Shown here piece by piece: positions 5,242 to 63,568 of a stretch of DNA of 64,000 bases. How positions within the stretch are numbered: the stretch's first letter is position 1; each line of letters begins with the position of its first letter. The notes below the pieces were generated by a model that was not told the DNA's origin, ran no database searches, and was given only the letters and a program-made list of their open reading frames with translations. The DNA lies in assembly GCF_044324785.1 (NCBI RefSeq), contig NZ_CP172127.1. One strand, 5' to 3'. The DNA is from Escherichia coli (lineage in GTDB: Bacteria; Pseudomonadota; Gammaproteobacteria; Enterobacterales; Enterobacteriaceae). The position numbers were made by a program, and so were the translations under genes.

Positions 5242-5597
5242 AAAGTCCTGTCCAGAAAGAAGTCGGCCTCGCAAAAATGAATAAACCCAGTTTCTCTTGC
5301 GCAACAGGTGGAGAAGTCGATACGCAGTATGTAAAAAATGAGGCAATAGATTCACTGGGGAGGTCGCGAGGAGGCGCAATTCTACAAAATTGCGCATTTC
5401 ACTACCAGTCTGGAGTCAGCCCGGATATGAACTGCAACTATTGCAAATAAAGAAATTAAGCTGGAAGGCATCACGCAATGAGGAAGATAGCCGGGTGCTG
5501 ACGGTAAAAAGCAATCGTAAAATCAGCGGCAAGCCGGAAAGGTTCCGGTGAGGCGCAATGTTGCGGGGGCTTAATCCCTGGTGGCATTGGTTGCTGG

Positions 5598-5666
5598 AGA
5601 GAGAAAACCCCCGCACGTTGCAGGTATGCACCTGACAACATCACGGGGGCCATTCTTGAACCTGAA
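5598..5666 (-). ncRNA. rdl: Rdl antisense RNA (type I antitoxin), copy 1
   Basis: Reverse complement of the ldr leader region resembles recalled Rdl RNA (..caagaauggcccccgug..caacgugcggggguuuucuc); ends approximate. Confidence 0.5.
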
Positions 5667-5715
5667 CAACTCAAGAATAGCCGCGAAACGTTGTCATTAC
5701 AACTCAGGCGGCTAT

Positions 5716-5823
5716 ATGACGCTCGCAGAACTGGGCATGGCCTTCTGGCATGATTTAGCGGCTCCGGTCATTGCTGGCATTCTTGCCAGCATGATCGTGA
5801 ACTGGCTGAATAAGCGGAAGTAA
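5716..5823 (+). CDS. ldrD: Ldr small toxic peptide (type I toxin), copy 1
   Basis: 35 aa MTLAELGMAFWHDLAAPVIAGILASMIVNWLNKRK matches recalled LdrD; sits between yhjV and bcsG as in K-12. Confidence 0.85.
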   Translation: MTLAELGMAFWHDLAAPVIAGILASMIVNWLNKRK

Positions 5824-6080
5824 CGTGTCAGACGGGCGTCAGGCTGCCGTAATGGCAAGTTGCGCCCGGATCAGACCGCAGGGATAAAACTCTGCGGCCT
5901 TTTTCGTAAGAAAAATGCAACGGTTGCAAGCGGATAATATTCTGCGGAATGCGCAGCACAGAGTGAAGACGTGACGGATTCCGGAACAGAAAAACAGTCG
6001 TAGAATCAGCGGCAAGCCGGAAAGGTTCCGGTGAGGCGCAATGTTGCGGGGGCTTAATCCCTGGTGGCATTGGTTGCTGG

Positions 6081-6149
6081 AGAGAGAAAACCCCCGCACG
6101 TTGCAGGTATGCACCTGACAACACCACGGGGGCCATTCTTGCATCCAAA
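6081..6149 (-). ncRNA. rdl: Rdl antisense RNA (type I antitoxin), copy 2
   Basis: Same element 483 bp downstream of copy 1 with several substitutions; ends approximate. Confidence 0.45.
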
Positions 6150-6198
6150 CAATACAAGAATAGCCGCGAAACGTTGTCATTACAACAGAGGCGGCTAT

Positions 6199-6306
6199 AT
6201 GACGCTCGCAGAACTGGGCATGGCCTTCTGGCATGATTTAGCGGCTCCGGTCATTGCTGGCATTCTTGCCAGTCTGATCGTGAACTGGCTGAACACGCGG
6301 AAGTAA
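6199..6306 (+). CDS. Ldr small toxic peptide (type I toxin), copy 2
   Basis: 35 aa MTLAELGMAFWHDLAAPVIAGILASLIVNWLNTRK; diverged paralog (M25L, K32T) within the second repeat unit. Confidence 0.8.
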   Translation: MTLAELGMAFWHDLAAPVIAGILASLIVNWLNTRK

Positions 6307-6392
6307 CGTGTCAGACGGGCGTCAGGCTGCCGTAATGGCAATTTGCGCCCGGACCAGGCCGCAGGGGGAAAACTCTGCGGCCTTTTTCGTTC

Positions 6393-26043: not shown

Positions 26044-26469
26044 ATGCTTGTGTTAAAATCACAATCGATTGGATTCAGGATTTCCACAACTTATTTATCT
26101 TTAACATATACAGAGTCTGATGGCGTCAACATTAAAGTAGATGCTCTGGAGTTAATATCAAAAGAGAAAGATTATGTTCAAATTGAACTGGTCTTCACTA
26201 CAGTTGCTGAAGTTAAGTGTGCTACCGTCAATTTTTATGAAGCCAACTATAACAATATTGTTATTAAGAAGGTTGATGGTGAAAATCTGGACTCCGGTAT
26301 ATATCAAGTAATGAATTCTGTACCGCTTGAAGAAAAAGAGAAATTATATGACCCTAAAAAACGGTTGAAGTTAAAACATTATATTATAGCAGGTTATGAT
26401 AGTTATGTTGAGATTTTAGCTACTGGTTTTAGCTGTATACGATGCCAGGCAATAGATGGTGTTAAATAA
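26044..26469 (+). CDS. Hypothetical protein, island ORF1 (141 aa)
   Basis: ATG 7 nt after AGGAG (26032-26036); no signal peptide; stop overlaps ORF2 start. Confidence 0.6.
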   Translation: MLVLKSQSIGFRISTTYLSLTYTESDGVNIKVDALELISKEKDYVQIELVFTTVAEVKCATVNFYEANYNNIVIKKVDGENLDSGIYQVMNSVPLEEKEKLYDPKKRLKLKHYIIAGYDSYVEILATGFSCIRCQAIDGVK

Positions 26470-26723
26470 TGGCCTATCATATAGAAATATTGAAAATTGA
26501 AGAAACTGATAAAGTAGTAAAATATGAATTTGGACCTACATCTTCTGACTATTGTAGATCTGATTACGGCGAGTTCGTGATAGATAAAAGAACGGGTGAG
26601 ATGACATTAGTCAGAATGGTTAAAAACGATTCGGCTAATAAATTTTATTTGCGAGCGAGTTTTAAGATTCTGACCTGTTGGCGAAAGGGCTATTTGCCAA
26701 AAAATGGGGAATGGGCTTCTTAA
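26469..26723 (+). CDS. Hypothetical protein, island ORF2 (84 aa)
   Basis: TAATG stop/start overlap with ORF1; no recognisable motif. Confidence 0.55.
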   Translation: MAYHIEILKIEETDKVVKYEFGPTSSDYCRSDYGEFVIDKRTGEMTLVRMVKNDSANKFYLRASFKILTCWRKGYLPKNGEWAS

Positions 26724-26790
26724 TAAGTAACTTTGCAGAATAAGTGAATTTTCCCATTTTTGGGGGCAGTCGTTGATTCTTACACAGTTT

Positions 26791-27039
26791 ATGTTATGGG
26801 TGCAGAAAAATACTGGGCATAATATTAGATGCAATACCAATACATTATCAACTAGCATAGTTATTGATTTTGATAATGATATCTATATTGCCAGGTTTAC
26901 AGTTTGGGATGATTTAAGTTGTATGTCAGAAGTTATATGCGTTGAAACGGGGGATTATAAATTAAATCAGCGAAATGAATTCCATACTTATGATTCGCTA
27001 AGGAAGATTTTTGATAATTTCATGGGAATTATACAATAA
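26791..27039 (+). CDS. Hypothetical protein, island ORF3 (about 82 aa)
   Basis: Track ORF starts at TTG 26773; first ATG at 26791; no clear SD, weakest of the five. Confidence 0.4.
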   Translation: MLWVQKNTGHNIRCNTNTLSTSIVIDFDNDIYIARFTVWDDLSCMSEVICVETGDYKLNQRNEFHTYDSLRKIFDNFMGIIQ

Positions 27040-27064
27040 ATTGCGCTAATAAAATAAAAACATT

Positions 27065-27556
27065 ATGTTTAAATTGATAGCAATCAAAGAAACTCCTTTG
27101 GGAGTAAAAGATGACGAAGATCTCTCGGTATCAGAAGCCATATACTCAACCTATACTGATTATACAAACGATATCCTTATGGTGTTTGATAAAGTCGTTT
27201 TATGTTTAGATAGAAAAGGAGATATTAGCGATATCTATAATGATATCGTCAATATATTTGAGCAGATAGAACTGGGTACTAAACAGTTTTTTATGTGTTT
27301 TTTATCCAGTACATTCACTACACGTTGGGAATTTGAGCATAAAAGCCCAGATACTATCAATATAACCGCTTATTGGTTTGACGTAAGATATCTTTATGGT
27401 ATCAACTCGATTATTAAAACTTCCACAATTGAAATCCCAGTATCTGAATTTAAAATGCAATGGGGAAATATTATAAAACCAATAAAAAAAGATATTCTTT
27501 CGTTAGGTTATGATGAAACGTTAGTAAATTTTTCTTTTTTTAACAATTTTAATTGA
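27065..27556 (+). CDS. Hypothetical protein, island ORF4 (163 aa)
   Basis: Same strand 25 nt after ORF3; acidic N-terminus; AT-rich codon usage. Confidence 0.55.
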   Translation: MFKLIAIKETPLGVKDDEDLSVSEAIYSTYTDYTNDILMVFDKVVLCLDRKGDISDIYNDIVNIFEQIELGTKQFFMCFLSSTFTTRWEFEHKSPDTINITAYWFDVRYLYGINSIIKTSTIEIPVSEFKMQWGNIIKPIKKDILSLGYDETLVNFSFFNNFN

Positions 27557-27629
27557 TGAGTTATTAGTCTGGTTTATCTAAAAATGTAGGTGGTTTTTTT
27601 GCGACATCAACGGATTTAAAGGAGTATAA

Positions 27630-28214
27630 ATGCGTAACAAAAAACGCATACTATTCTTGCTAACAGTCATTCTTTGCTTAACCGGTCTTTATTCCTGCAA
27701 CAAAATTTTTCTCTTACTCTGGGATGCCAATAATATTTATGTCAGTACAAAAAATAATATCGATAAAGACAAGGTAAAAATAGAATTCGGTATCAGCGTC
27801 AACACGATCAACCGAGAAACGGATGCCGAATTATTTGCTGACAGAGATAAGTATGCAGTGCTCTTCGATGGTAGCCTGAAAAATAAGATGATAAACGAAT
27901 ACGGAGAAAATGATTTTTTAATTACCTACGATAACCGCTGCTATTTATCATTTCGTCAATTTAAAACCAATCGTCGTCATCAACATGACTATTATTTTGA
28001 CTTCTTTAACAACAATGGGAATGTCTTCGTCACGGTCGAAATTAAAGGTGAGAACCCGCTTAAATTTACGCGTAGTTTGAATGATATGCGTCAGCAGTTT
28101 ATTTCAAATCATCAGCACCGCTCGGTTCGTCCCTGCAAGATGATTAACGGAGAACGAATATCTACCCGTTCTCCGTCAAAAACCATTATTCCGGCATCGC
28201 CTCACGCGGGATAA
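27630..28214 (+). CDS. Hypothetical predicted lipoprotein, island ORF5 (194 aa)
   Basis: GGAG 6 nt upstream of ATG; N-terminus MRNKKRILFLLTVILCLTGLYSC resembles a lipoprotein signal peptide with imperfect lipobox; 3' end overlaps kdgK 3' end by 29 bp. Confidence 0.55.
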   Translation: MRNKKRILFLLTVILCLTGLYSCNKIFLLLWDANNIYVSTKNNIDKDKVKIEFGISVNTINRETDAELFADRDKYAVLFDGSLKNKMINEYGENDFLITYDNRCYLSFRQFKTNRRHQHDYYFDFFNNNGNVFVTVEIKGENPLKFTRSLNDMRQQFISNHQHRSVRPCKMINGERISTRSPSKTIIPASPHAG

Positions 28215-29115
28215 TCGCGCCGCGATACTGAATAACGGTACTTGCGGTCAGGTGCCCGCGTTTCGCCGCGTTTTCCGCACTGCCGCCCGTCAAACGTACC
28301 GCCAGATAACCGGCACTGAAAGAGTCGCCAGCTGCGGTGGTATCGATCACTTTTTCTTTCGGCAGTTTCACCGCCGGAACATCCACTAACCCTTCGCCAG
28401 CAATGGACACCAGGCAAGAATCCGCCCCGCGTTTCACCACCACTTCTTTCACGCCCGCGTTATGGGTGCGCGCAATGACGTCTTCCACCGGCTGTTGACC
28501 CCACAGCGCGTCTTCGTCGTCCAGCGTCAGGAAGGCGATATCCGTGCATTCCAGCATTTGCTGGTACACCTGCTGTGTCTCTTCTTTGCTGGCCCACAGG
28601 CGCGGACGATAGTTATTGTCGAAAATCACTTTTCCGCCGTTGGCGCGGCATTCGCGCAGCAGAGAAAGCAGCTTTTCGCGGCTGGTCGGGCTTAAGATCG
28701 CCAGGCTAATCCCGCTCAGGTAGAGATAATCGAAATTCGCCAGCTCTTCGCAAATCGCCGCAGATTGCTCGCTCTCCAGCCAGAATTTGGCGGCGGCTTC
28801 GTTACGCCAGTAGTAGAACGTACGTTCGCCGGTGCTGTCGGTTTCAATGTAGTAAAGGCCCGGCAGACGGTTTTCCATCCGTTGGGTCAGGGAAGTATCA
28901 ACGTTCTCGCCGTGCCAGGCGTCCAGCATTTGCTGGCTAAAACTGTCCGTTCCCAGCGCCGTTACGTAATGAACGGTTAATGCCGCAGGATCGACCTGAC
29001 GGGCGATATAGACGGAAGTGTTCAGGGTATCGCCGCCGAAACCGCGCTTAACGTCCGCGCCTTTCTCGGAAAGCTCAATCATGCATTCGCCAATCACGGC
29101 AATCTTTTTGGACAT
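28186..29115 (-). CDS. kdgK: 2-dehydro-3-deoxygluconokinase KdgK
   Basis: 309 aa from MSKKIAVIGECMIEL; pfkB-family sugar kinase; the track ORF is over-extended upstream. Confidence 0.9.
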   Translation of the reverse strand: MSKKIAVIGECMIELSEKGADVKRGFGGDTLNTSVYIARQVDPAALTVHYVTALGTDSFSQQMLDAWHGENVDTSLTQRMENRLPGLYYIETDSTGERTFYYWRNEAAAKFWLESEQSAAICEELANFDYLYLSGISLAILSPTSREKLLSLLRECRANGGKVIFDNNYRPRLWASKEETQQVYQQMLECTDIAFLTLDDEDALWGQQPVEDVIARTHNAGVKEVVVKRGADSCLVSIAGEGLVDVPAVKLPKEKVIDTTAAGDSFSAGYLAVRLTGGSAENAAKRGHLTASTVIQYRGAIIPREAMPE

Positions 29116-42697: not shown

Positions 42698-43522
42698 ATG
42701 CAATCACTACATGGGAATTGTCTAATTGCGTACGCAAGACATAAATATATTCTCACCATGGTTAATGGTGAATATCGCTATTTTAATGGCGGTGACCTGG
42801 TTTTTGCGGATGCAAGCCAAATTCGAGTAGATAAGTGTGTTGAACATTTCATATTAGTTTCAAGGGATACGCTTTCATTATTTCTCCCGATGCTCAAGGA
42901 GGAGGCATTAAAACTTCATGCACATAAAAAAGTTCCTTCATTACTCGTTCATCACTGTACCAGAGATATTCCTGTTTTTCAGGAAGTTGCGCAACTATCG
43001 CAGAATAAGAATCTTCGCTATGCAGAAACGCTACGTAAAAGAGCATTAATCTTTGCGCTGTTATCTGTTTTTCTGGAGGATGAGCAGTTTATACCGCTAC
43101 TTCTGAACGTTTTGCAACCGAACATGCGAACACGAGTTTGTACGGTTATCAATAATAATATCGCACATGAGTGGACACTAGCCCGAATCGCCAGCGAGCT
43201 GTTGATGAGTCCAAGCCTGTTAAAGAAAAAATTGCGCGAAGAAGAGACTTCATATTCACAGTTGCTTACTGAGTGTAGAATGCAACGTGCTTTGCAACTT
43301 ATTGTTATACATGGTTTTTCAATTAAGCGAGTTGCAGTGTCCTGTGGATATCACAGCGTGTCGTATTTCATTTACGTTTTTCGAAATTATTATGGGATGA
43401 CGCCCACAGAGTATCAGGAGCGATCAGCGCAGGGATTGCCGAACCGTGACTCGGCGGCAAGTATTGTTGCACAAGGGAATTTTTACGGCACTGACCGTTC
43501 TGCGGAAGGAATAAGATTGTAG
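42698..43522 (+). CDS. gadX: AraC-family acid resistance regulator GadX
   Basis: 274 aa with C-terminal AraC HTH. Confidence 0.92.
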   Translation: MQSLHGNCLIAYARHKYILTMVNGEYRYFNGGDLVFADASQIRVDKCVEHFILVSRDTLSLFLPMLKEEALKLHAHKKVPSLLVHHCTRDIPVFQEVAQLSQNKNLRYAETLRKRALIFALLSVFLEDEQFIPLLLNVLQPNMRTRVCTVINNNIAHEWTLARIASELLMSPSLLKKKLREEETSYSQLLTECRMQRALQLIVIHGFSIKRVAVSCGYHSVSYFIYVFRNYYGMTPTEYQERSAQGLPNRDSAASIVAQGNFYGTDRSAEGIRL

Positions 43523-43539
43523 AGTTTTACTCAGAGATA

Positions 43540-43644
43540 AAAAAAACCCGGCATAGGGGACCGGGAAGAGGATAGTCTGCCGTCTCCAGACTAATAAACC
43601 GTTATAACACTCCCTGTTGGCACGGGAAACTTTGTGCTCTCAGT
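43540..43644 (-). ncRNA. gadY: GadY small regulatory RNA
   Basis: Minus-strand sequence actgagagcacaaagtttcccgtgccaacaggg...cccctatgccgggtttttttt matches recalled 105-nt GadY; terminator hairpin plus U-run at the 3' end; convergent with gadX. Confidence 0.8.
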
Positions 43645-43890
43645 AAGTTAAATATAACTTTTACTGGAAATAAGATCAGCCATTTTTTTATAAACATAAG
43701 CTATACGCTGTGCGAAAATATATTCGTGCTGCATTTACTTATTATCAATTAACTGTTATGCAAAACTACTTTGTGGATAAATTTTGGTCCTACCAAATCT
43801 GGCAGTTTTTGCGCTAAGAAACAGTCTGGCATCATTTCATTAGTATACTGAAATTGAAATAATCGCAGTAATGAAATATAAGGGATAGTC

Positions 43891-44619
43891 ATGACTCATG
43901 TCTGCTCGGTGATCCTCGTTCGTCGTTCATTTGATATTTATCATGAACAGCAAAAAATATCGTTGCACAACGAGAGTATCCTGTTACTGGATAAAAATTT
44001 GGCAGACGATTTTGCGTTTTGTTCACCGGATACGCGACGACTGGATATCGATGAGCTGACAGTTTGCCATTACTTACAAAATATTCGTCAGATACCACGC
44101 AATTTAGGGTTACATAGCAAAGACCGTCTGTTAATTAACCAGTCACCCCCCATGCCGCTGGTGACGGCGATTTTTGATAGTTTCAATGAATCAGGGGTAA
44201 ATTCACCGATACTGAGCAAAATGCTCTATCTTTCCTGTTTATCGATGTTTTCTCATAAGAAAGAACTGATCCCCTTACTTTTCAATAGTATCAGTACTGT
44301 TTCAGGAAAAGTTGAACGCCTTATTAGCTTTGATATCGCCAAACGTTGGTATCTGCGCGATATCGCGGAAAGAATGTATACCAGCGAGAGTCTCATCAAA
44401 AAAAAGTTGCAGGATGAAAATACCTGTTTCAGTAAAATATTACTCGCCTCCAGGATGTCGATGGCCAGACGATTACTCGAGTTACGTCAAATTCCTCTGC
44501 ATACTATTGCGGAAAAATGTGGATATAGCAGTACGTCGTACTTTATAAACACATTTCGACAATATTATGGTGTAACGCCACATCAGTTTGCGCAACATTC
44601 GCCAGGTACCTTTTCCTGA
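43891..44619 (+). CDS. gadW: AraC-family acid resistance regulator GadW
   Basis: 242 aa with AraC HTH. Confidence 0.92.
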   Translation: MTHVCSVILVRRSFDIYHEQQKISLHNESILLLDKNLADDFAFCSPDTRRLDIDELTVCHYLQNIRQIPRNLGLHSKDRLLINQSPPMPLVTAIFDSFNESGVNSPILSKMLYLSCLSMFSHKKELIPLLFNSISTVSGKVERLISFDIAKRWYLRDIAERMYTSESLIKKKLQDENTCFSKILLASRMSMARRLLELRQIPLHTIAEKCGYSSTSYFINTFRQYYGVTPHQFAQHSPGTFS

Positions 44620-49277: not shown

Positions 49278-49615
49278 TTTAGTCCCTGAAAATTCTTGAG
49301 AAATAACGGTTCTTTAAATTGCGCGCGAGGAGAGATATGAGGGATTTACAGACCAGCGGCATAGTGGGGTTGTCAGCCAGTAAGGTGGGATACAGGCATA
49401 GTGATCGACATGGTGAGGTCAACGACAAAAAAAATGTTGCCGTTCTGCCAACAGTTCCTGCCAGCATTCGGGCAACGAAGGGTTCTACTGGTGGATACAC
49501 ATACCAGGGGAATAAAGTCGTTTTAACCTCTCCTTTAGTAATCACCGGGGGTAATGAAATCAGCATCTGCATCCCTCGTCATGCCAGCCATCAATTTCAG
49601 TTGCTTATGTCCTGA

Positions 49616-54076: not shown

Positions 54077-55065
54077 GTGATCCTCCGGTTGCGCAGAATC
54101 AACCACATAAAATAAGGACCACCAAGCAGGCTGGTTAATAATCCCACGGGCATTTCTGCTGGCTGTACCAGCGTGCGGGCAAGCGTGTCTGCCATCAGCA
54201 ATAAACAGGCTCCGGCGAGGGCGGAGCAAGGGATTAGCCAGCGGTGATTTGCTCCGGTAGTCATGCGAATCAGATGCGGGATCACCAGGCCAATAAAGCC
54301 GATAATGCCGCTTACCGATACGGCAGCACCAACGAGCAGTGAGCTCACTAACAGTAATTGCTGGCGTTTACGCTTAACGTTCACGCCGAGGTAGTGGGCT
54401 TCTTCATCACCGAGCTGCAGTAAATTCAGCGTTCCGGCGAGACAAGTTGTTGCGATAATGGCCGGTAGGATGAATGAACTGGCAACCAATAACGTCGGCC
54501 ATTGCGCCTGTCCAAGATTGCCCATCATCCACAATGTGAGTTGTCGTAGCTGCTGCTCATCGCCGATATAGCTCAGGATGCCGATCGCTGCGCCGCACAG
54601 GGCATTGATGGCGATACCAGCGAGTAATAATTGCATCATGCTGCCATCGCGATGGCGCTGCGTGATGAGAAAAATGATGGTGCAGACCACTAAACTTCCG
54701 ACAATGGCAAACACCATTTGCTCATAGAGCACTAGCACCACTGGGAAGGAGAAGGGCAGCACAATAGCAACGCCAACCATTAATGCAGAACCGCTACTGA
54801 CGCCAAGTAATCCTGGGTCAGCCATTGGGTTGCGAAAAAGCCCCTGCATAATTACCCCGGCGGTTGCCAACGCTGCACCTACCAGCACCGCCAGCAAAAC
54901 CCGTGGTAGACGAATATTGAGCCAGATATCGCGGTATTCCTCATCAAAAAGGGCATCAAAACTGATCCTTAACGCTCCCTGACTGGCACCGAACAGCACC
55001 AGAGCGAGCAATAATAGTGATAGCCTCATAAAGACCCTGGCGGAAGAGAGTGAATCCTTGAGCAC
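54073..55065 (-). CDS. chuU: Heme ABC transporter permease ChuU
   Basis: 330 aa FecCD-type permease. Confidence 0.85.
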
Positions 55066-55113
55066 GCAAAACTCCGTTACGACATTACGGCGCGGACATG
55101 CCGCGCCGGGGGA

Positions 55114-55737
55114 TCACGCCGGTTTCAGGTCCGGTTCAATCAGACTGTAGACCTGCTGGTTAAGTGCTGGCGCATTTGCCAGTTCATGGATATGTGCGGC
55201 GACATCGGTACGGTTAACAAAACCATGACACTCCTGATTTTGTATCCGTTGTGCTTTGCCCGTTGCCGCCCCATCAAGCAGACCGCCAGGGCGGAGAATG
55301 GCGTAATCAAGCTGGCTGGTTTGCAACCAGCTTTCCGCCAGCGTTTTTTCCCGTACCGCCTGACCAAACGCAGCCTTTGCTCGCTCCGATAAAAACGGCC
55401 AGCTATCGCCGCATCCCAAAGAGGTCACCAGAATCATGCGACTGATGCCGGCCTTTTCGGCCTCATCAATCACTGTTCTGTGCGCCAGATAATCCTGAGC
55501 TCCTCCCATTGTTGAGATGATAAGCGCATCCGGGCCAGCTGCGCGGCAAGCAGCCGCAACTACGCTGGCATCACAGGCGTCGCCTGTAAAAACCTGTACG
55601 CCTTGTTGCGCCAGTTTCGTGGCGGCATCGGCATGACGAACGACAGCAACGACCGGACGTTGCTCTGCCAGCGCCAGTTCAAGCGTTCTGGCACCCACAC
55701 CTTTTCCGCCTGCGCCAAAGAGTAGCCACGGCGTCAT
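55114..55737 (-). CDS. chuY: ChuY, NAD(P)-binding heme utilisation protein
   Basis: 207 aa with Rossmann-like N-terminus; position in chu operon. Confidence 0.8.
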   Translation of the reverse strand: MTPWLLFGAGGKGVGARTLELALAEQRPVVAVVRHADAATKLAQQGVQVFTGDACDASVVAAACRAAGPDALIISTMGGAQDYLAHRTVIDEAEKAGISRMILVTSLGCGDSWPFLSERAKAAFGQAVREKTLAESWLQTSQLDYAILRPGGLLDGAATGKAQRIQNQECHGFVNRTDVAAHIHELANAPALNQQVYSLIEPDLKPA

Positions 55738-56231
55738 CAGGCGTGTTCCTTTAACGATGCTGCCAGAGCATGGAAGGCGCTGACTTGTTCGCTCAGGAGC
55801 TGACGATGGTCATCCCTGCCGAGGAAGATTTTCAGCATTGCGCTGCCTTCTTTGTTGAAAAAGAGAATGGATGCGGTGTCCATGCCCATAAATTTACGTT
55901 CGATCAAGGCAATATGTGTGCAGTTTTCTGCTTTGATATGCCCGGACATGCCGTGCTTTCCGCGTAGGTTGAAATAGCCGTGGCGGTGGAAACCCGAAGG
56001 CAGTTCGCCGCTAAATTCGAGGATTACATCGGCAGTATGTACTAACGTGGTGACGTTGCCCCATTCGCAGACGGTATCCCAGATAGTATCGAATTTATCG
56101 CCTGACACTATGGTAGAGGAGGGCAGATTTTTCACTACTTCCAGCAGTGTGGTGTTGTATTGTTCGGCTACCACCTCCAGCGTACCGTCCGGCTCCGTTT
56201 TCAAAAATTCTTGTAACGAGACATGGCTCAT
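55737..56231 (-). CDS. chuX: ChuX heme utilisation/carrier protein
   Basis: 164 aa between chuW and chuY. Confidence 0.8.
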   Translation of the reverse strand: MSHVSLQEFLKTEPDGTLEVVAEQYNTTLLEVVKNLPSSTIVSGDKFDTIWDTVCEWGNVTTLVHTADVILEFSGELPSGFHRHGYFNLRGKHGMSGHIKAENCTHIALIERKFMGMDTASILFFNKEGSAMLKIFLGRDDHRQLLSEQVSAFHALAASLKEHA

Positions 56232-56243
56232 AAATCACTCCTG

Positions 56244-57581
56244 TTATGGTTTTTCACGCACAATCGCTGGCGCATTAAGTACCTGAATTAGTTCATTAAG
56301 AGACTGCAAAATATTGCTTGCCCAGAAACGACCTTCATTAGTCAGCCGCAGGCAAGTTGACGCATCGCGGCTTAAGCCTTTTTGGTGCCATTGAGCCAGT
56401 AACGGCGCGAGTTTTTCGGCATGTGGTGTAAGTTCATCCAGCGGTACACGCGCTGTTTCAACACCTGACTGCAAGGTATGACGCCATTGCGCATTACGTT
56501 CGGCGTTACGCATGATCATCATCAGCGGTTTTTTGCCTGCCGCGACGGATTCATGCCAGGTCTGCAGATTGCGTTCGTTCATCCAGGAGTAACCATTAAT
56601 CGAACCGCCGGCTCCGGAACCAAAGGCCAGACAATCGGCACCTTGTTTAATCAGCAGGTTATAGAGATTGCGTTCGCGTGTGGTACGGCCCCAGTGGCTG
56701 TTACTAATACAGCGCCAACCGGCTTCGTCCATGAAGTCACACCCTTGCAGATAAAGATCGCGACGTTCTGCCGGAGAGGGCACGGTAGTGCGCCCATTTT
56801 CCACGGCTTTGCCCAGCGGTGTATTGGGTAGGACATTGAGCGCATAGAGATCGACGCCGTCGAGACCGATATCGCGGGCAATAGCCAGATCTTCTCCCCA
56901 GGTTTGCGCATCCTGACCCGGCAGGCCAAACAGCAGGTCACAGACCACCGCTGCACGGTCGCGTTTGACCAGGCTTTCCATAAACGCAATGGCGGTTGGG
57001 CCATCCGAGGTGCGGGCCATTTTCTTGCGGATTTTGCTGTTAAACGACTGAATACCAATTGAGAAGCGGTTTGCTCCTGCATCAAGGCAAGCATCGATTC
57101 GCTCAGCGTCAAAATTCAGTACCCGGCCTTCGATAGTGATTTCACAATCAGGGGCCAGTGGCAGCTTTTCTCGTAATGTATTGATAATTCTGGCTAAATC
57201 GTGTGCCGAAAGCGCGGAAGGCGTGCCGCCACCGAAATAGACCGCGTGGATGGGGGCAGACTGATGCAATACGCTGTCCGCTTCCATTTCTATTTCACGA
57301 ATCAGGGCGTCGGTATAATGAGCACACGCATCTTCATTAAAACGGTTCTGATAAAAGCCACAAAACGTGCAGTGTGTCGCACAAAAAGGAATGTGTAGGT
57401 AAACCAGTCGCTTACGAGGTGATGCCGTTTGATTGATCATCTCTTGCCAGGTCTGTGCCAGTTGCTCTTTGGCAACCGGAATGGCTCCACGAAACGGCAT
57501 CATGGCGCGCCTGTCTTTAAATGGCTGATCACCGTCTAAAGCAAAATGTGGCGTGAGATCCAGGGTGTTATTTACGTTCAT
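56244..57581 (-). CDS. chuW: ChuW radical SAM (HemN-like) anaerobic heme-degrading enzyme
   Basis: 445 aa with CxxxCxxC motif (PFCATHCTFC). Confidence 0.85.
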   Translation of the reverse strand: MNVNNTLDLTPHFALDGDQPFKDRRAMMPFRGAIPVAKEQLAQTWQEMINQTASPRKRLVYLHIPFCATHCTFCGFYQNRFNEDACAHYTDALIREIEMEADSVLHQSAPIHAVYFGGGTPSALSAHDLARIINTLREKLPLAPDCEITIEGRVLNFDAERIDACLDAGANRFSIGIQSFNSKIRKKMARTSDGPTAIAFMESLVKRDRAAVVCDLLFGLPGQDAQTWGEDLAIARDIGLDGVDLYALNVLPNTPLGKAVENGRTTVPSPAERRDLYLQGCDFMDEAGWRCISNSHWGRTTRERNLYNLLIKQGADCLAFGSGAGGSINGYSWMNERNLQTWHESVAAGKKPLMMIMRNAERNAQWRHTLQSGVETARVPLDELTPHAEKLAPLLAQWHQKGLSRDASTCLRLTNEGRFWASNILQSLNELIQVLNAPAIVREKP

Positions 57582-57600
57582 TCGTCTGATTTAAATCCAT

Positions 57601-58455
57601 TTATTGCGGCCAAAGCTGCTGGTGTAAAGACTCAACGACATCAGCAATACGCGGACCCATTCCCAGAATCAGGTTTTGATCAACGGTGATAATGCGCTGG
57701 TTTTTCCATGCGGCAGTGTGGGTAATTCCGGCAATAGAACGTAGCCGATTAATATCGCCATCGACCATTTGTGAGGTTACGACAATCACTTCTGGATTGG
57801 CCGCAATCAGTGATTCTGCACTGTAGCTTTTGTACTGCTGGTGGGTTGCGACGTTTTCTGCTCCGGCAAGCGAAAGAATGGCGTCCGCGACGCTGCCTTT
57901 ACCGGCAACCTGTGGCGCACTTCCGCCTGCGGAGAGAATAAACATGGCTTTAACCGGGGCTTTTTTGGCCGCCACGTTTTGCTGTACTCGCTCCAGGCGT
58001 TGGTTGATCTGTGTCACCAGCGCCTCGCCTTGTTCAGGAACCTGTAACGTTTTTGCCAGTTGGCGAATGTTGGCGTACATCTGCTGAAGGGTGGCAGGCA
58101 CACGTGGCAGGGTGACGACGTTGACTTTCTGCGCTCGTAATTGGTCGAGCACAATTTGTGGCCCGGCATCCTGCCAGGTAATTACGCTATCCGGGTGAAG
58201 TGACAAAATGCCTTCGCTGCTGAGTTGTTTCCAGTAGCCAATATGCGGCAGTTTGGCGGTTTCTGGTGGATAAGATGTCGTTTCATCGACACCAACCACG
58301 CGTTCGCCAGCGCCCATCGCGTAGATTAGCTCCGTCAGCGATCCTCCTGCGACCACGATACGTTCGGCAGCCGTTACGCTAAAAGCCCAGCTAAGAGCCA
58401 GTACTGCCGTAAACAATTTTTTTCGTTTTACCGCGGTCTTCGCGGCAGAGGCCAT
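57601..58455 (-). CDS. chuT: Periplasmic heme-binding protein ChuT
   Basis: Start set at MASAAKTAVKRKKLFTAVLALSWAFSVTA (signal-peptide-like) downstream of the Fur box; the track ORF extends to 58593 and an alternative start is at 58515. Confidence 0.75.
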   Translation of the reverse strand: MASAAKTAVKRKKLFTAVLALSWAFSVTAAERIVVAGGSLTELIYAMGAGERVVGVDETTSYPPETAKLPHIGYWKQLSSEGILSLHPDSVITWQDAGPQIVLDQLRAQKVNVVTLPRVPATLQQMYANIRQLAKTLQVPEQGEALVTQINQRLERVQQNVAAKKAPVKAMFILSAGGSAPQVAGKGSVADAILSLAGAENVATHQQYKSYSAESLIAANPEVIVVTSQMVDGDINRLRSIAGITHTAAWKNQRIITVDQNLILGMGPRIADVVESLHQQLWPQ

Positions 58456-58540
58456 GGCTGAAATACATAACGTTAGTGGGGAAAAAAGAAACGGCCTGGT
58501 GATGATCCTTGGCATAATATGAGAACTCTTATCAAATTGA

Positions 58541-58560
58541 GAATGATCATGATTATCATT
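58541..58560. promoter_or_regulatory. Fur box, chuT-side promoter
   Basis: gaatgatcatgattatcatt resembles the Fur consensus GATAATGATAATCATTATC. Confidence 0.6.
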
Positions 58561-58890
58561 TGAGTTATATATGAAATACAACCGTCGATTCAATACGCAA
58601 GGCGTTACAAGCGTATTTATTTTTGATTTTTATCAAGATGCTTCGTCAGCTAACGTTCTTGTTACCGACTAAATTTCAGCGCGGGAAAAAGCTGAGAACC
58701 CAGAGATATCGAGGCTTGCAGAGCAAAGCGAAGAGAAAATTATCACTGTTAACGACAAAGTTTAGTAATGAGGTCATGGGGGAATAACCATAAAAACAAA
58801 GTGGTTTCCAGGGCGCAGGATAAGTTTCATAACCCCCTGTTTATTGTGTTAATGGCGGTTAAAAAAAAGCTTGATCATAAAAAATTGATC

Positions 58891-58909
58891 GATAATAATT
58901 CTCATTATC
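58891..58909. promoter_or_regulatory. Fur box, chuA-side promoter
   Basis: gataataattctcattatc is a near-consensus Fur box about 290 bp upstream of chuA. Confidence 0.7.
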
Positions 58910-59170
58910 ACGTTTGCGTTTAACAAAATACGGCCATATGGATAACAAAGCCATATCATTTACAAGGGGTAACGCACAGCGCTCTTCACTCCTGATGGGG
59001 CATATCGTTTTGCCTGACAAAGAGGGCGTGCTTTTGCGTATTTGCCGAGATACCAGGCAATTTCATGGGATATAAACGCCTGTAAACTCACCCGGCGAAT
59101 ATTATCGCTCTGAATTTTAAATAAATTTATTTCTCGCCAGCCACCCCGGTATTAACCCAGGCAGCCAGCA

Positions 59171-59198
59171 TTTTTTATTTTCCTCATGGAGAATCGCT
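59171..59198 (+). promoter_or_regulatory. chuA 5' UTR U-rich element able to pair with the SD (candidate FourU thermometer)
   Basis: ttttttattttcctc directly upstream of catggag-ATG; the U-run and ucctc can pair with the ggag SD. Confidence 0.5.
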
Positions 59199-61181
59199 AT
59201 GTCACGTCCGCAATTTACCTCGTTGCGTTTGAGTTTGTTGGCTTTGGCTGTTTCTGCCACCTTGCCAACGTTTGCTTTTGCTACTGAAACCATGACCGTT
59301 ACGGCAACGGGGAATGCCCGTAGTTCCTTCGAAGCGCCTATGATGGTCAGCGTCATCGACACTTCCGCTCCTGAAAATCAAACGGCTACTTCAGCCACCG
59401 ATCTGCTGCGTCATGTTCCTGGAATTACTCTTGATGGTACCGGACGAACCAACGGTCAGGATGTAAATATGCGTGGCTATGATCATCGCGGCGTGCTGGT
59501 TCTTGTCGATGGTGTTCGCCAGGGAACGGATACCGGACACCTGAATGGTACTTTTCTTGATCCGGCGCTGATCAAGCGTGTTGAGATTGTTCGCGGACCT
59601 TCAGCATTACTGTATGGCAGTGGCGCGCTGGGTGGAGTGATCTCCTACGATACGGTCGATGCAAAAGATTTATTGCAGGAAGGACAAAGTAGTGGTTTTC
59701 GTGTCTTTGGTACTGGCGGCACGGGGGACCATAGCCTGGGATTAGGCGCGAGCGCGTTTGGGCGAACTGAAAATCTGGATGGTATTGTGGCCTGGTCCAG
59801 TCGCGATCGGGGTGATTTACGCCAGAGCAATGGTGAAACCGCGCCGAATGACGAGTCCATTAATAACATGCTGGCGAAAGGGACCTGGCAAATTGATTCA
59901 GCCCAGTCTCTGAGCGGTTTAGTGCGTTACTACAACAACGACGCGCGTGAACCAAAAAATCCGCAGACCGTTGAAGCTTCTGATAGCAGCAACCCGATGG
60001 TTGATCGTTCAACAATTCAACGCGATGCGCAGCTTTCTTATAAACTCGCCCCGCAGGGCAACGACTGGTTAAATGCAGATGCAAAAATTTACTGGTCGGA
60101 AGTCCGTATTAATGCGCAAAACACGGGGAGTTCCGGCGATTATCGTGAACAGATAACAAAAGGAGCCAAACTGGAGAACCGTTCCACTCTCTTTGCCGAC
60201 AGTTTCGCTTCTCACTTACTGACATATGGCGGTGAGTATTATCGTCAGGAACAACATCCGGGCGGCGCGACGACGGGCTTCCCGCAAGCAAAAATCGATT
60301 TTAGCTCCGGCTGGCTACAGGATGAGATCACCTTACGCGATCTGCCGATTACCCTGCTTGGCGGAACCCGCTATGACAGTTATCGCGGTAGCAGCGACGG
60401 CTACAAAGATGTTGATGCCGACAAATGGTCATCTCGCGCGGGGATGACTATCAACCCGGCTAACTGGCTGATGTTATTTGGCTCATATGCCCAGGCATTC
60501 CGCGCCCCGACGATGGGCGAAATGTATAACGATTCTAAGCACTTCTCGATTGGTCGCTTCTATACCAACTATTGGGTGCCAAACCCGAACTTACGTCCGG
60601 AAACTAACGAAACTCAGGAGTACGGTTTTGGGCTGCGTTTTGATGACCTGATGTTGTCCAATGATGCTCTGGAATTTAAAGCCAGCTACTTTGATACCAA
60701 AGCGAAGGATTACATCTCCACGACCGTCGATTTCGCGGCGGCGACGACTATGTCGTATAACGTCCCGAACGCCAAAATCTGGGGCTGGGATGTGATGACG
60801 AAATATACCACTGATCTGTTTAGCCTTGATGTGGCCTATAACCGTACCCGCGGCAAAGACACCGATACCGGCGAATACATCTCCAGCATTAACCCGGATA
60901 CCGTTACCAGCACCCTGAATATTCCGATCGCTCACAGTGGCTTCTCTGTTGGGTGGGTTGGTACGTTTGCCGATCGCTCAACACATATCAGCAGCAGTTA
61001 CAGCAAACAACCAGGCTATGGCGTGAATGATTTCTACGTCAGTTATCAAGGACAACAGGCGCTCAAAGGTATGACCACTACTTTGGTGTTGGGTAACGCT
61101 TTCGACAAAGAGTACTGGTCGCCGCAAGGCATCCCACAGGATGGTCGTAACGGAAAAATTTTCGTGAGTTATCAATGGTAA
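59199..61181 (+). CDS. chuA: TonB-dependent outer membrane heme/hemoglobin receptor ChuA
   Basis: 660 aa, signal peptide, TonB-box region, C-terminal aromatic residue (..FVSYQW). Confidence 0.9.
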   Translation: MSRPQFTSLRLSLLALAVSATLPTFAFATETMTVTATGNARSSFEAPMMVSVIDTSAPENQTATSATDLLRHVPGITLDGTGRTNGQDVNMRGYDHRGVLVLVDGVRQGTDTGHLNGTFLDPALIKRVEIVRGPSALLYGSGALGGVISYDTVDAKDLLQEGQSSGFRVFGTGGTGDHSLGLGASAFGRTENLDGIVAWSSRDRGDLRQSNGETAPNDESINNMLAKGTWQIDSAQSLSGLVRYYNNDAREPKNPQTVEASDSSNPMVDRSTIQRDAQLSYKLAPQGNDWLNADAKIYWSEVRINAQNTGSSGDYREQITKGAKLENRSTLFADSFASHLLTYGGEYYRQEQHPGGATTGFPQAKIDFSSGWLQDEITLRDLPITLLGGTRYDSYRGSSDGYKDVDADKWSSRAGMTINPANWLMLFGSYAQAFRAPTMGEMYNDSKHFSIGRFYTNYWVPNPNLRPETNETQEYGFGLRFDDLMLSNDALEFKASYFDTKAKDYISTTVDFAAATTMSYNVPNAKIWGWDVMTKYTTDLFSLDVAYNRTRGKDTDTGEYISSINPDTVTSTLNIPIAHSGFSVGWVGTFADRSTHISSSYSKQPGYGVNDFYVSYQGQQALKGMTTTLVLGNAFDKEYWSPQGIPQDGRNGKIFVSYQW

Positions 61182-61229
61182 TCATCTGCCCCGATATTTC
61201 GGGGCATTTATCTGGAAGGAAGAGAGACA

Positions 61230-62258
61230 ATGAACCACTACACACGCTGGCTTGAGTTAAAAGAACAAAATCCCGGAAAGTACGCGCGTGACATCGCAGG
61301 TTTAATGAATATCAGCGAAGCAGAACTGGCATTTGCACGCGTCACGCACGATGCGTGGCGGATGCGCGGCGATATCCGTGAAATTCTGGCGGCGCTCGAA
61401 AGTGTTGGCGAAACCAAATGTATTTGCCGTAATGAATATGCAGTCCATGAGCAAGTTGGTACGTTCACAAACCAGCATTTGAACGGACATGCCGGATTGA
61501 TCCTCAATCCGCGCGCGCTGGATTTACGTCTGTTTCTCAATCAATGGGCCAGTGTTTTCCACATCAAAGAAAACACGGCTCGTGGCGAACGCCAGAGTAT
61601 TCAGTTCTTTGATCATCAGGGCGACGCATTACTAAAAGTTTATGCCACCGACAATACCGATATGGCGGCATGGAGTGAGCTTCTGGCACAGTTTATCGCC
61701 GATGAGAATACGTCGCTTGAGTTAAAAGCCGTGGATGCGCCAGTCGTTCAAATGCGAGCCGATGCCAGTGTGGTCGAGCAAGAGTGGCGGGCGATGACCG
61801 ACGTTCATCAGTTTTTTACGTTGCTCAAGCGCCACAACCTGACGCGCCAACAGGCGTTCAATCTGGTGGCAGACGATTTGGCCTGCAAAGTATCCAACAG
61901 TGCGTTGGCGCAAATTCTTGAATCTGCACAGCAGGATGGCAATGAAATCATGGTGTTTGTTGGCAACCGTGGCTGCGTACAGATTTTCACTGGCGTGGTA
62001 GAAAAAGTGGTGCCAATGAAAGGTTGGCTGAATATTTTCAACCCGACGTTTACTCTTCATCTATTAGAAGAGAGCATTGCTGAAACCTGGGTAACCCGTA
62101 AACCTGCTAGTGACGGTTATGTGACCAGTCTGGAATTGTTTGCCCATGATGGTACACAGATAGTGCAACTTTATGGTCAACGTACAGAAGGCGAACAGGA
62201 GCAAGCGCAATGGCGTAAGCAAATTGCTTCGCTGATACCGGAAGGCGTTACTGCATAA
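61230..62258 (+). CDS. chuS: Heme oxygenase/heme-degrading protein ChuS
   Basis: 342 aa immediately after chuA. Confidence 0.88.
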   Translation: MNHYTRWLELKEQNPGKYARDIAGLMNISEAELAFARVTHDAWRMRGDIREILAALESVGETKCICRNEYAVHEQVGTFTNQHLNGHAGLILNPRALDLRLFLNQWASVFHIKENTARGERQSIQFFDHQGDALLKVYATDNTDMAAWSELLAQFIADENTSLELKAVDAPVVQMRADASVVEQEWRAMTDVHQFFTLLKRHNLTRQQAFNLVADDLACKVSNSALAQILESAQQDGNEIMVFVGNRGCVQIFTGVVEKVVPMKGWLNIFNPTFTLHLLEESIAETWVTRKPASDGYVTSLELFAHDGTQIVQLYGQRTEGEQEQAQWRKQIASLIPEGVTA

Positions 62259-62318
62259 CGTATAATTAAAGGGAGGTCTGGCTATTTATTGCTGGGCCTC
62301 TTTATATTAATCAATCGA

Positions 62319-62849
62319 TCACACCAGATAATCAATATGCTGATGGCGTACCAACTCATTGATCCGCTTAAGATTGAGGATCATCATGATATTGTGTTTA
62401 TGGCAGTAGAACGTTTTTAGCGATATTTTCAGTTTCTCCAGAATATCTTCCGTTGTCATTTGATTCGCAATGCAGCTCAGAACCTGATGCTGCTTGCGCG
62501 AAAGGGACACATCCGCTTCAGGCACAGAGCAGTAACTGCCATTGATGAGTGCGACAAAGTCGATGATGGTGATAGTTCGCGGAACAAAGGTCACCGGTAC
62601 TTTCCCCAGGCAGCGTTTAATATTAAAGGGAGAGAAAATAATCACATGGACAGGTTTTAATCGTTCAATTTGAGTGAGCAAATTAGAATGAAATACATTA
62701 TTCATTAATGTATCAATAATGACGAAGGCATGCTGATGCAACATTACGTCGATCTCTTCTTCGTTCTGTATATGAACGACATTACCTTTACTCAGAATGT
62801 TTTTCATCGCAGTGAAGAACATCGTATCCCTGGTAATTATAAGAAACAT
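62319..62849 (-). CDS. dctR: LuxR-family regulator DctR (YhiF)
   Basis: 176 aa, length and position between slp and the acid island. Confidence 0.88.
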   Translation of the reverse strand: MFLIITRDTMFFTAMKNILSKGNVVHIQNEEEIDVMLHQHAFVIIDTLMNNVFHSNLLTQIERLKPVHVIIFSPFNIKRCLGKVPVTFVPRTITIIDFVALINGSYCSVPEADVSLSRKQHQVLSCIANQMTTEDILEKLKISLKTFYCHKHNIMMILNLKRINELVRHQHIDYLV

Positions 62850-63001
62850 AACCGACTCCTGGTGCGGACATTAACTTTATAATCAGTTTGCCAAAGGTAA
62901 TTAACAGGACAGGGCTTATAATAATAGTTAGCTGGCTGTGTATTAATTTGATGTAATGCATGATGCAGATGCTGAGAAAGCATCTGCATCTCTCGGTGGT
63001 G

Positions 63002-63568
63002 TTATTTGACCAGCTCAGGTGTTACCTGACTCACCGCATTGGTGTAGTAAGGCGCACCCCAGCCCGGTTCCGGCCAGAATGCACCATAGCCGTAATCCCA
63101 CAGGTTATAGGTGGTATTAACCACTTCTCTCAAATGCCACACCTGGATGCCCTGCATATTCACTTCGAGGAAGTTATACGGGACTTTATTGATAAAGCCA
63201 GGTTGTTCACCCTGAATGGTACCGAGGATGGTAACAAAGTGATTACGATAGTTCACTGGATCAAGGAAGCCGCTTTGTCTGGCGAGCAGTCGGCCCTGAT
63301 AGTTGGCTTCAATATCAGGCTTCGCATAGCTATCCAACGGTAATACAGCGATTTCTAACAACGTATCCGTTTTGCCATTGATAACGTTGATAACCTTCCC
63401 ACCAAAGCGCGCTTGTTGACCAACATATAACCCCGGCTGGTTATGAACAGCAACAAAACTTTTTTGAATATCAGGTTGGTTATTGCCTTTGATATTTTGC
63501 GGAATTGAACTACATGCGGCAAGCAAAAATGAAAGGCTGAGGATGAGTGCACCTTTTGTCATGTTCAT
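63002..63568 (-). CDS. slp: Outer membrane starvation lipoprotein Slp
   Basis: 188 aa from MNMTKGALILSLSFLLAACSS with lipobox LAAC; the track ORF is over-extended. Confidence 0.9.
   Translation of the reverse strand: MNMTKGALILSLSFLLAACSSIPQNIKGNNQPDIQKSFVAVHNQPGLYVGQQARFGGKVINVINGKTDTLLEIAVLPLDSYAKPDIEANYQGRLLARQSGFLDPVNYRNHFVTILGTIQGEQPGFINKVPYNFLEVNMQGIQVWHLREVVNTTYNLWDYGYGAFWPEPGWGAPYYTNAVSQVTPELVK

Follow-up and report, generated by a model that had tools for sequence, protein, structure and literature searches.

The gadY small RNA gene in the gadX-gadW spacer of a non-K-12 Escherichia coli, and its conservation relative to the flanking genes

The spacer between the regulator genes gadX and gadW in the stretch of Escherichia coli DNA analysed here (64,000 nt, hereafter the window) carries on its minus strand the gene for GadY, the known small RNA of the E. 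coli acid fitness island; it is the same gene as that of K-12 and there is nothing new in its identity. The best explanation of the data, and one about which we have very little doubt, is that of a gadY gene that has a predicted promoter of its own, lies on the strand opposite to gadX and gadW, and, according to the literature, acts through cis pairing with the gadX 3' UTR, i.e. the gadX-gadW intercistronic RNA. Beyond annotation this adds little. The gadA-gadX-gadY-gadW segment of the acid fitness island is confirmed in identity and orientation for a non-K-12 strain, and a real gene that is omitted by automatic annotation is restored. The contrast in conservation between GadY and its surroundings, on the other hand, provides an independent comparative argument that more than the cis-antisense role constrains the RNA, and this agrees with published work on RIL-seq and on CsrA.

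Identity and position of GadY

An Rfam scan of the whole window yielded a match to the GadY family (RF00122) on the minus strand at 43534-43647, which scores 147.1 bits against a gathering score of 45 (E 4.3e-31) and covers model positions 1-114 of 114, i.e. the full length of the family; such a match is far beyond chance. In a permissive scan of positions 43400-44000 GadY was the sole Rfam family at E<=1, and no second RNA family was found there. The curated record of K-12 strain MG1655 served as reference, in which gadY (b4452) occupies NC_000913.3 3664864..3664969 on the plus strand and gadW and gadX lie on the minus strand. The boundaries of GadY in the window are those of this curated annotation, carried over by pairwise alignment of the spacer. 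The alignment shows identity at 106 of 106 nt between window positions 43539-43644 (minus strand) and K-12 gadY, and over 408 aligned columns there are four differences, none of them inside GadY: 43536 (C for G, three nt past the GadY 3' end), 43519 (synonymous, in the last gadX codon) and, near the start of gadW, 43871 (a 1-nt insertion) and 43888. The layout of the locus, of which the K-12 arrangement is the mirror image, is as follows:

42698..43522, plus strand: gadX, AraC-family activator of acid resistance (NCBIfam equivalog NF007432, 594 bits against a cut-off of 500; RefSeq annotation of strain N3)
43523..43538, no strand: gap of 16 nt that separates GadY from the gadX stop codon, poorly conserved, with one K-12 difference at 43536
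43539..43644, minus strand: gadY, full-length small RNA of 106 nt, 5' A at 43644 and last U of the 3' end at 43539 (RF00122 and K-12 alignment)
43690..43890, plus strand: rest of the spacer, upstream region of gadW, divergent from the gadY promoter and free of plus-strand terminators
43891..44619, plus strand: gadW, second AraC-family regulator, downstream of gadX (RefSeq, strain N3, same coordinates)

The spacer as a whole measures 368 nt (43523-43890), of which GadY takes the 106 nt at the gadX-side end and the gadY promoter and gadW upstream region the remainder. Counted from the end of the gadX stop codon (43522), GadY ends on the 17th nucleotide. gadW shows 97.3% nucleotide identity to K-12 gadW and has no NCBIfam equivalog at its cut-off. 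Further out, gadA lies upstream of gadX, and mdtFE and gadE lie downstream of gadW. The annotations of strain N3 could be carried over because that genome is collinear with the window, with 99.4% identity over positions 1-50000.

The first-pass annotation of this DNA had recognised GadY on the minus strand between gadX and gadW and had filed it as known biology that confirms the orientation and shows the spacer not to be empty, all of which is borne out by the Rfam match and by the complete identity to the annotated K-12 gene. It had proposed alignment to K-12 gadY as a check, and had named as contrary evidence a GadY annotated on the wrong strand or at another place within the spacer; identity, strand and position all agree, with b4452 lying opposite gadX and gadW and adjoining the gadX stop codon. 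Three of its details need adjustment. The span that it gave, 43523-43890, does contain GadY but is the whole spacer and thus not the extent of the small RNA. The RNA was said to end 18 nt past the gadX stop; the proximity is right, whereas the figure is not, the gap being 16 nt by the 106-nt K-12 annotation ("18" fits an older 105-nt annotation with seven U, and lies inside the normal raggedness of 3' ends at terminators). Finally, the description of GadY as antisense to the gadX 3' end holds for the 3' UTR of the gadX mRNA and the intercistronic RNA, but not for the coding sequence, from which GadY is separated by the gap, without overlap.

K-12 GadY (b4452, RF00122; formerly named IS183) thus shares with the window the same 106 nt, neighbours, opposite-strand orientation, terminator and promoter region. 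As for annotation, none of the listed records of PGAP-annotated RefSeq genomes has a feature at gadY, and only the curated K-12 record annotates it; the gene appears to be unannotated across PGAP-annotated genomes. A 47-aa open reading frame at 43749-43892 on the minus strand, antisense to the 5' region of gadW, was considered as well and is most likely not a gene. The window, strain E69 and E. whittamii have it intact; K-12 carries a frameshift in it, and stop codons break it in E. albertii and strain SCPM-O-B-8794.

Putative elements of the gadY promoter

Upstream of the K-12 5' end the minus strand carries the following putative promoter elements, as read from the sequence:

43651..43656, minus strand: -10 hexamer TATATT, at -12 to -7 from the K-12 5' end, function predicted
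43674-43679, minus strand: weak -35-like hexamer CTGATC, separated from the -10 by a 17-nt spacer
43676-43683, minus strand: AppY motif ATGGCTGA (pattern ATGSCWGM), overlapping the -35-like hexamer

Across the 8 aligned Escherichia sequences neither the putative -10 hexamer nor the -35 region shows any change. A simple sigma-70 scan does not call the gadY promoter, because the -35 matches the consensus at just 3 of 6 positions. AppY has been described to bind the gadY promoter, where an 8-bp AppY motif overlaps the -35 (PMC10057817). The pattern ATGSCWGM occurs 41 times in the window against 22 matches expected by chance, and a motif that is this common by chance is informative only through its position relative to the -35; we therefore dropped it as stand-alone evidence. 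What can be said is that, as judged from the sequence, the AppY motif and the putative -10 sit at the expected distance upstream of GadY.

The terminator and transcription through the spacer

The 3' end of GadY is formed by two elements:

43547..43565, minus strand: intrinsic terminator hairpin of GadY, 6 pairs (5 G-C) and a 7-nt loop (terminator scan, Rfam consensus structure)
43539-43546, minus strand: U8 tail, directly 3' of the terminator hairpin

The terminator hairpin and U-tail claimed in the earlier annotation are accordingly found as CCCGGT-CCCCTAT-GCCGGG at 43565-43547 on the minus strand, followed by eight T. Small RNAs of this kind usually bind Hfq through a 3'-terminal terminator with its U tail. 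All 6 terminator pairs are invariant in 7 Escherichia sequences.

Being G+C-rich and located 25 nt after the gadX stop codon, the same hairpin might be taken for the terminator of gadX, or for a bidirectional one, with the resemblance to GadY being coincidental. Read on the plus strand, however, the hairpin has A8 before it and AAGAGGATAG after it, with no U tract, and the terminator scan calls it on the minus strand only; moreover, the coincidence would have to produce a GadY match that spans 114 model positions (E 4e-31) with 106/106 nt identical to K-12. We regard this reading as practically negligible. With its T run on the minus strand only, the hairpin is expected to stop minus-strand transcription only. 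The scan of the spacer returned no terminator-like site on the plus strand between gadX and gadW, and it is therefore plausible that gadX transcripts can run on towards gadW. Neither did a consensus scan of the spacer return a plus-strand site for a gadW promoter; the title of Tramonti et al. 2008, in the form in which it is cited in PMC11300174, speaks of "gadY-gadW divergent promoters".

Proposed mode of action

The mechanism that we consider for the window is the following. A promoter of its own would drive transcription of GadY (106 nt) on the strand facing gadX and gadW, and this transcription would end at the intrinsic terminator, leaving 16 nt to the gadX stop codon; gadX transcripts would run through the spacer towards gadW. 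Since such transcripts cross the GadY region, GadY would be perfectly complementary to the gadX 3' UTR or, put differently, to the gadX-gadW intercistronic RNA; this complementarity is perfect by construction. Going by the literature, GadY would accumulate in stationary phase, bind Hfq and pair with the intercistronic RNA. The expected outcome is more gadX mRNA and so a higher expression of the glutamate-dependent acid-resistance genes, and GadY may additionally act in trans on other acid-response mRNAs and bind CsrA.

Opdyke et al. reportedly found, in 2004, GadY species of ~105, 90 and 59 nt and a dependence on RpoS, and are said to have described, in 2004 and 2011, the stationary-phase expression, the binding of Hfq and the increase in gadX mRNA. 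More recent papers report that GadY is encoded opposite gadX and gadW, in the spacer separating the two, and that it binds Hfq (PMC11300174); they identify the 3' UTR of the gadX mRNA as its cis target and state that the pairing stabilises this mRNA (PMC10057817; PMC7373196). Hfq binding and gadX stabilisation are restated across PMC11300174, PMC10057817 and PMC5145812, and double-stranded RNA cleaved by RNase III has been captured at the K-12 gadY locus (PMC7373196).

Other antisense systems invite comparison. ArrS is, like GadY, a cis-encoded antisense RNA of the same island, and RIL-seq classes it as a trans-acting Hfq-dependent small RNA too (PMC5145812). It differs in sequence and in the end of the target that it covers, namely the 5' UTR of gadE, whereas GadY faces a 3' UTR. 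SraG (from the rpsO-pnp intergenic region) and other RNase III-linked antisense pairs such as RyeA/RyeB are, according to PMC5029454 and PMC7373196, similar to GadY in that they lie on the opposite strand between co-directional genes and form an intercistronic duplex on which RNase III acts. They are unrelated to it in sequence and have another effect on the mRNA, as GadY is reported to raise gadX mRNA; the likeness is drawn from the literature only.

RNA structure and GGA motifs

Free-energy minimisation on the window sequence gives a fold in agreement with the Rfam consensus, which has three stem-loop domains. Besides the terminator the following parts are distinguished:

43573..43593, minus strand: stem-loop 2, 7 pairs, loop GAGACGG, holding one GGA (Rfam structure and minimum-free-energy fold), invariant across species
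43585-43587, minus strand: GGA motif in stem-loop 2 (sequence)
43611-43613, minus strand: second GGA motif (sequence)
43598..43644, minus strand: 5' domain of GadY, nested helices 1-3 of the Rfam model, the sole part that varies between species

When the Rfam structure is imposed on 7 Escherichia sequences, 97.4% of the cells can pair and 25 of the 28 pairs never vary. None of the 28 pairs is changed on both sides in these 7 sequences, which are too similar to test the structure, i.e. covariation cannot be used here because the sequences are too alike. In some species two of the 5'-domain pairs are disrupted with no compensating change, so that covariation does not support this part of the fold. 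The fold of GadY beyond the terminator, as taken from the Rfam model, is compatible with these data but gains no independent support from them. Thermodynamics provided no evidence for it: with a predicted free energy of -29 kcal/mol the 114-nt RNA gains nothing over its shuffled versions (z = -0.52), and this line of support was dropped.

Both GGA motifs are kept in every species, even where an adjoining base changes. That GadY has two GGA motifs, one of them in a loop, has been noted in connection with its binding of CsrA (PMC10729762).

Conservation within Escherichia

The GadY sequence (106 nt) is present in 5,412 of 5,426 complete E. coli genomes, with no match below 99% identity. For the other 246 nt of the spacer, an identity of at least 99% is found in 2,566 genomes and one of 95-99% in 2,828. 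The remaining 14 of the 5,426 genomes have no GadY match and a few genomes have two copies. In strain KFu015 (NZ_CP147130.1) only the gadW-proximal part of the region is left, which suggests a deletion that removed gadX and gadY.

Species-representative genomes were searched once, by means of an exact 20-nt core of GadY, a search that finds only those copies that keep the core. It recovered six loci, all in Escherichia (E. albertii, E. whittamii, two other Escherichia species and two representatives labelled E. coli), and all six score 117-150 bits with the Rfam GadY model. The gadX-gadW region was aligned for the window (as reference), K-12 and five of the six loci; Escherichia sp. MOD1-EC7003 was left out, as it matched only from position 580 of the region. 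The identities to the window over the five loci are:

GadY: 92.5-100%
gadX coding sequence: 74-92%
gadW coding sequence: 74-93%
gap of 16 nt past the terminator: 17-56%
gadY promoter (45 nt): 82-93%

Four of these loci stand out as the most divergent, with just 74-87% identity in the coding sequences of both gadX and gadW. GadY shows 1-8 differences in these four loci, against 19-28 expected from the coding divergence (binomial P 1e-6 to 1e-10), and even the second codon positions of gadX and gadW, with 5-15% difference, diverge more than GadY does. A sliding profile of the gadX-gadW region reaches its highest peak at GadY, with up to 97% invariant columns, and falls abruptly at the 3' end of the RNA. 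On the other side little is conserved at 43693-43791, and conservation recovers towards the start of gadW. The last ~100 nt of gadX (43418-43522, plus strand), beyond the AraC-type DNA-binding domain, form the least conserved part of the region (17-25% invariant columns, and 45-65% identity in the four divergent loci) and directly adjoin GadY, the most conserved part.

Conservation alone is silent on which of the two strands is selected, and the block lies within a transcribed gadX-gadW spacer that lacks a plus-strand terminator. The functional element might hence be one of the plus strand, for instance a conserved part of the gadX 3' UTR or an element in intercistronic processing or stability, with transcription of the minus strand being incidental. 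The boundaries of the block argue against this, as they are set by the minus-strand -10/-35 on one side and the hairpin with its U tail on the other, elements that are themselves conserved, and both the minus-strand RNA and its binding of Hfq are documented in the literature (PMC11300174; PMC5145812). We consider an element of the plus strand very improbable.

What selection may act on

A mutation in a cis-antisense gene alters both partners at once, and the complementarity to gadX therefore survives automatically; consequently, it cannot explain the near-invariance of GadY. With flanks that diverge by ~25%, cis pairing is an insufficient explanation, and it follows that selection must act on something sequence-specific in GadY, for which protein binding (Hfq, CsrA), trans targets and processing determinants are the candidates.

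The identity of the RNA as GadY is not at issue in this question, which concerns the weight of its roles. It is quite conceivable, though we lean slightly against it, that the conserved block is kept mainly for roles other than that in cis, i.e. for action in trans via Hfq or for the binding of CsrA, and that the effect on gadX-gadW in cis is secondary. The comparative data that speak for such roles are the identity of 92.5-100% in GadY, set against differences of 21-26% in gadX and gadW of the same species, together with a conservation exceeding that of codon position 2, the sharpness of the drop at the GadY 3' end and the survival of both GGA motifs in all species. From the literature come the RIL-seq data, in which GadY is a small RNA with trans partners that are enriched for acid-response genes (PMC5145812), a reported SdiA target (PMC11300174), and the binding of CsrA to GadY in vitro and in CLIP data (PMC10729762). 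However, the sponge activity of GadY towards CsrA was not reproduced in one study (PMC10729762), and the same pattern of conservation could result from the Hfq-binding and terminator modules, from determinants in the duplex for RNase III or other processing, or from structure that both strands require. When sequence-specific processing determinants are counted with the trans-acting and protein-binding functions, we likewise put forward only tentatively that the main selected function of GadY is among these and that the textbook role in cis is secondary. The near-invariance fits the published roles in trans, in Hfq binding and in CsrA binding, and is not new in kind.

Strain context and other elements in the window

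The host of the window differs from K-12 in the presence of the chu heme-uptake locus inside the acid fitness island, from which we infer that the window stems from a non-K-12 lineage of E. coli. Judged by collinearity with strain N3, this chu/shu locus occupies ~54300-63250, between yhiD and dctR-slp, and comprises chuA, chuS, shuT, hutW, hutX, chuY, shuU and an ATPase. The Rfam scan returned the shuA/chuA 5' UTR thermoregulator at 59170-59201 on the plus strand, with a score (60.1 bits) that is barely above the gathering score of 58.

An Rfam match to the small RNA ES205 (105 bits against a gathering score of 86), at 49427-49498 on the minus strand, immediately follows gadE; it lies on the same strand as that gene, in its 3' UTR, and E. 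whittamii and strain E69 have the match as well. This RNA probably corresponds to GadF, which PMC5145812 names as a small RNA derived from a 3' UTR. The PGAP annotation of N3 has a "hypothetical protein" across ES205 on the opposite strand (49337-49615, plus strand), which looks spurious.

Two tandem ldr/rdlD type I toxin-antitoxin modules are present between yhjV and bcsG, where K-12 presumably has a single ldrD-rdlD. The rdlD matches in Rfam, at 5602-5667 and 6085-6150 on the minus strand, score 83.7 and 81.7 bits, and the collinear N3 genome has two Ldr toxin genes; the repeat units extend over about 5506-5907 and 5990-6390, are ~400 nt long and are 94.8% alike. Finally, between yhjJ and kdgK, at ~26050-28230 on the plus strand (by N3 collinearity), lie five small genes, which are annotated as hypothetical apart from one "immunity protein TriTu family", and which may represent an islet of orphan immunity genes.
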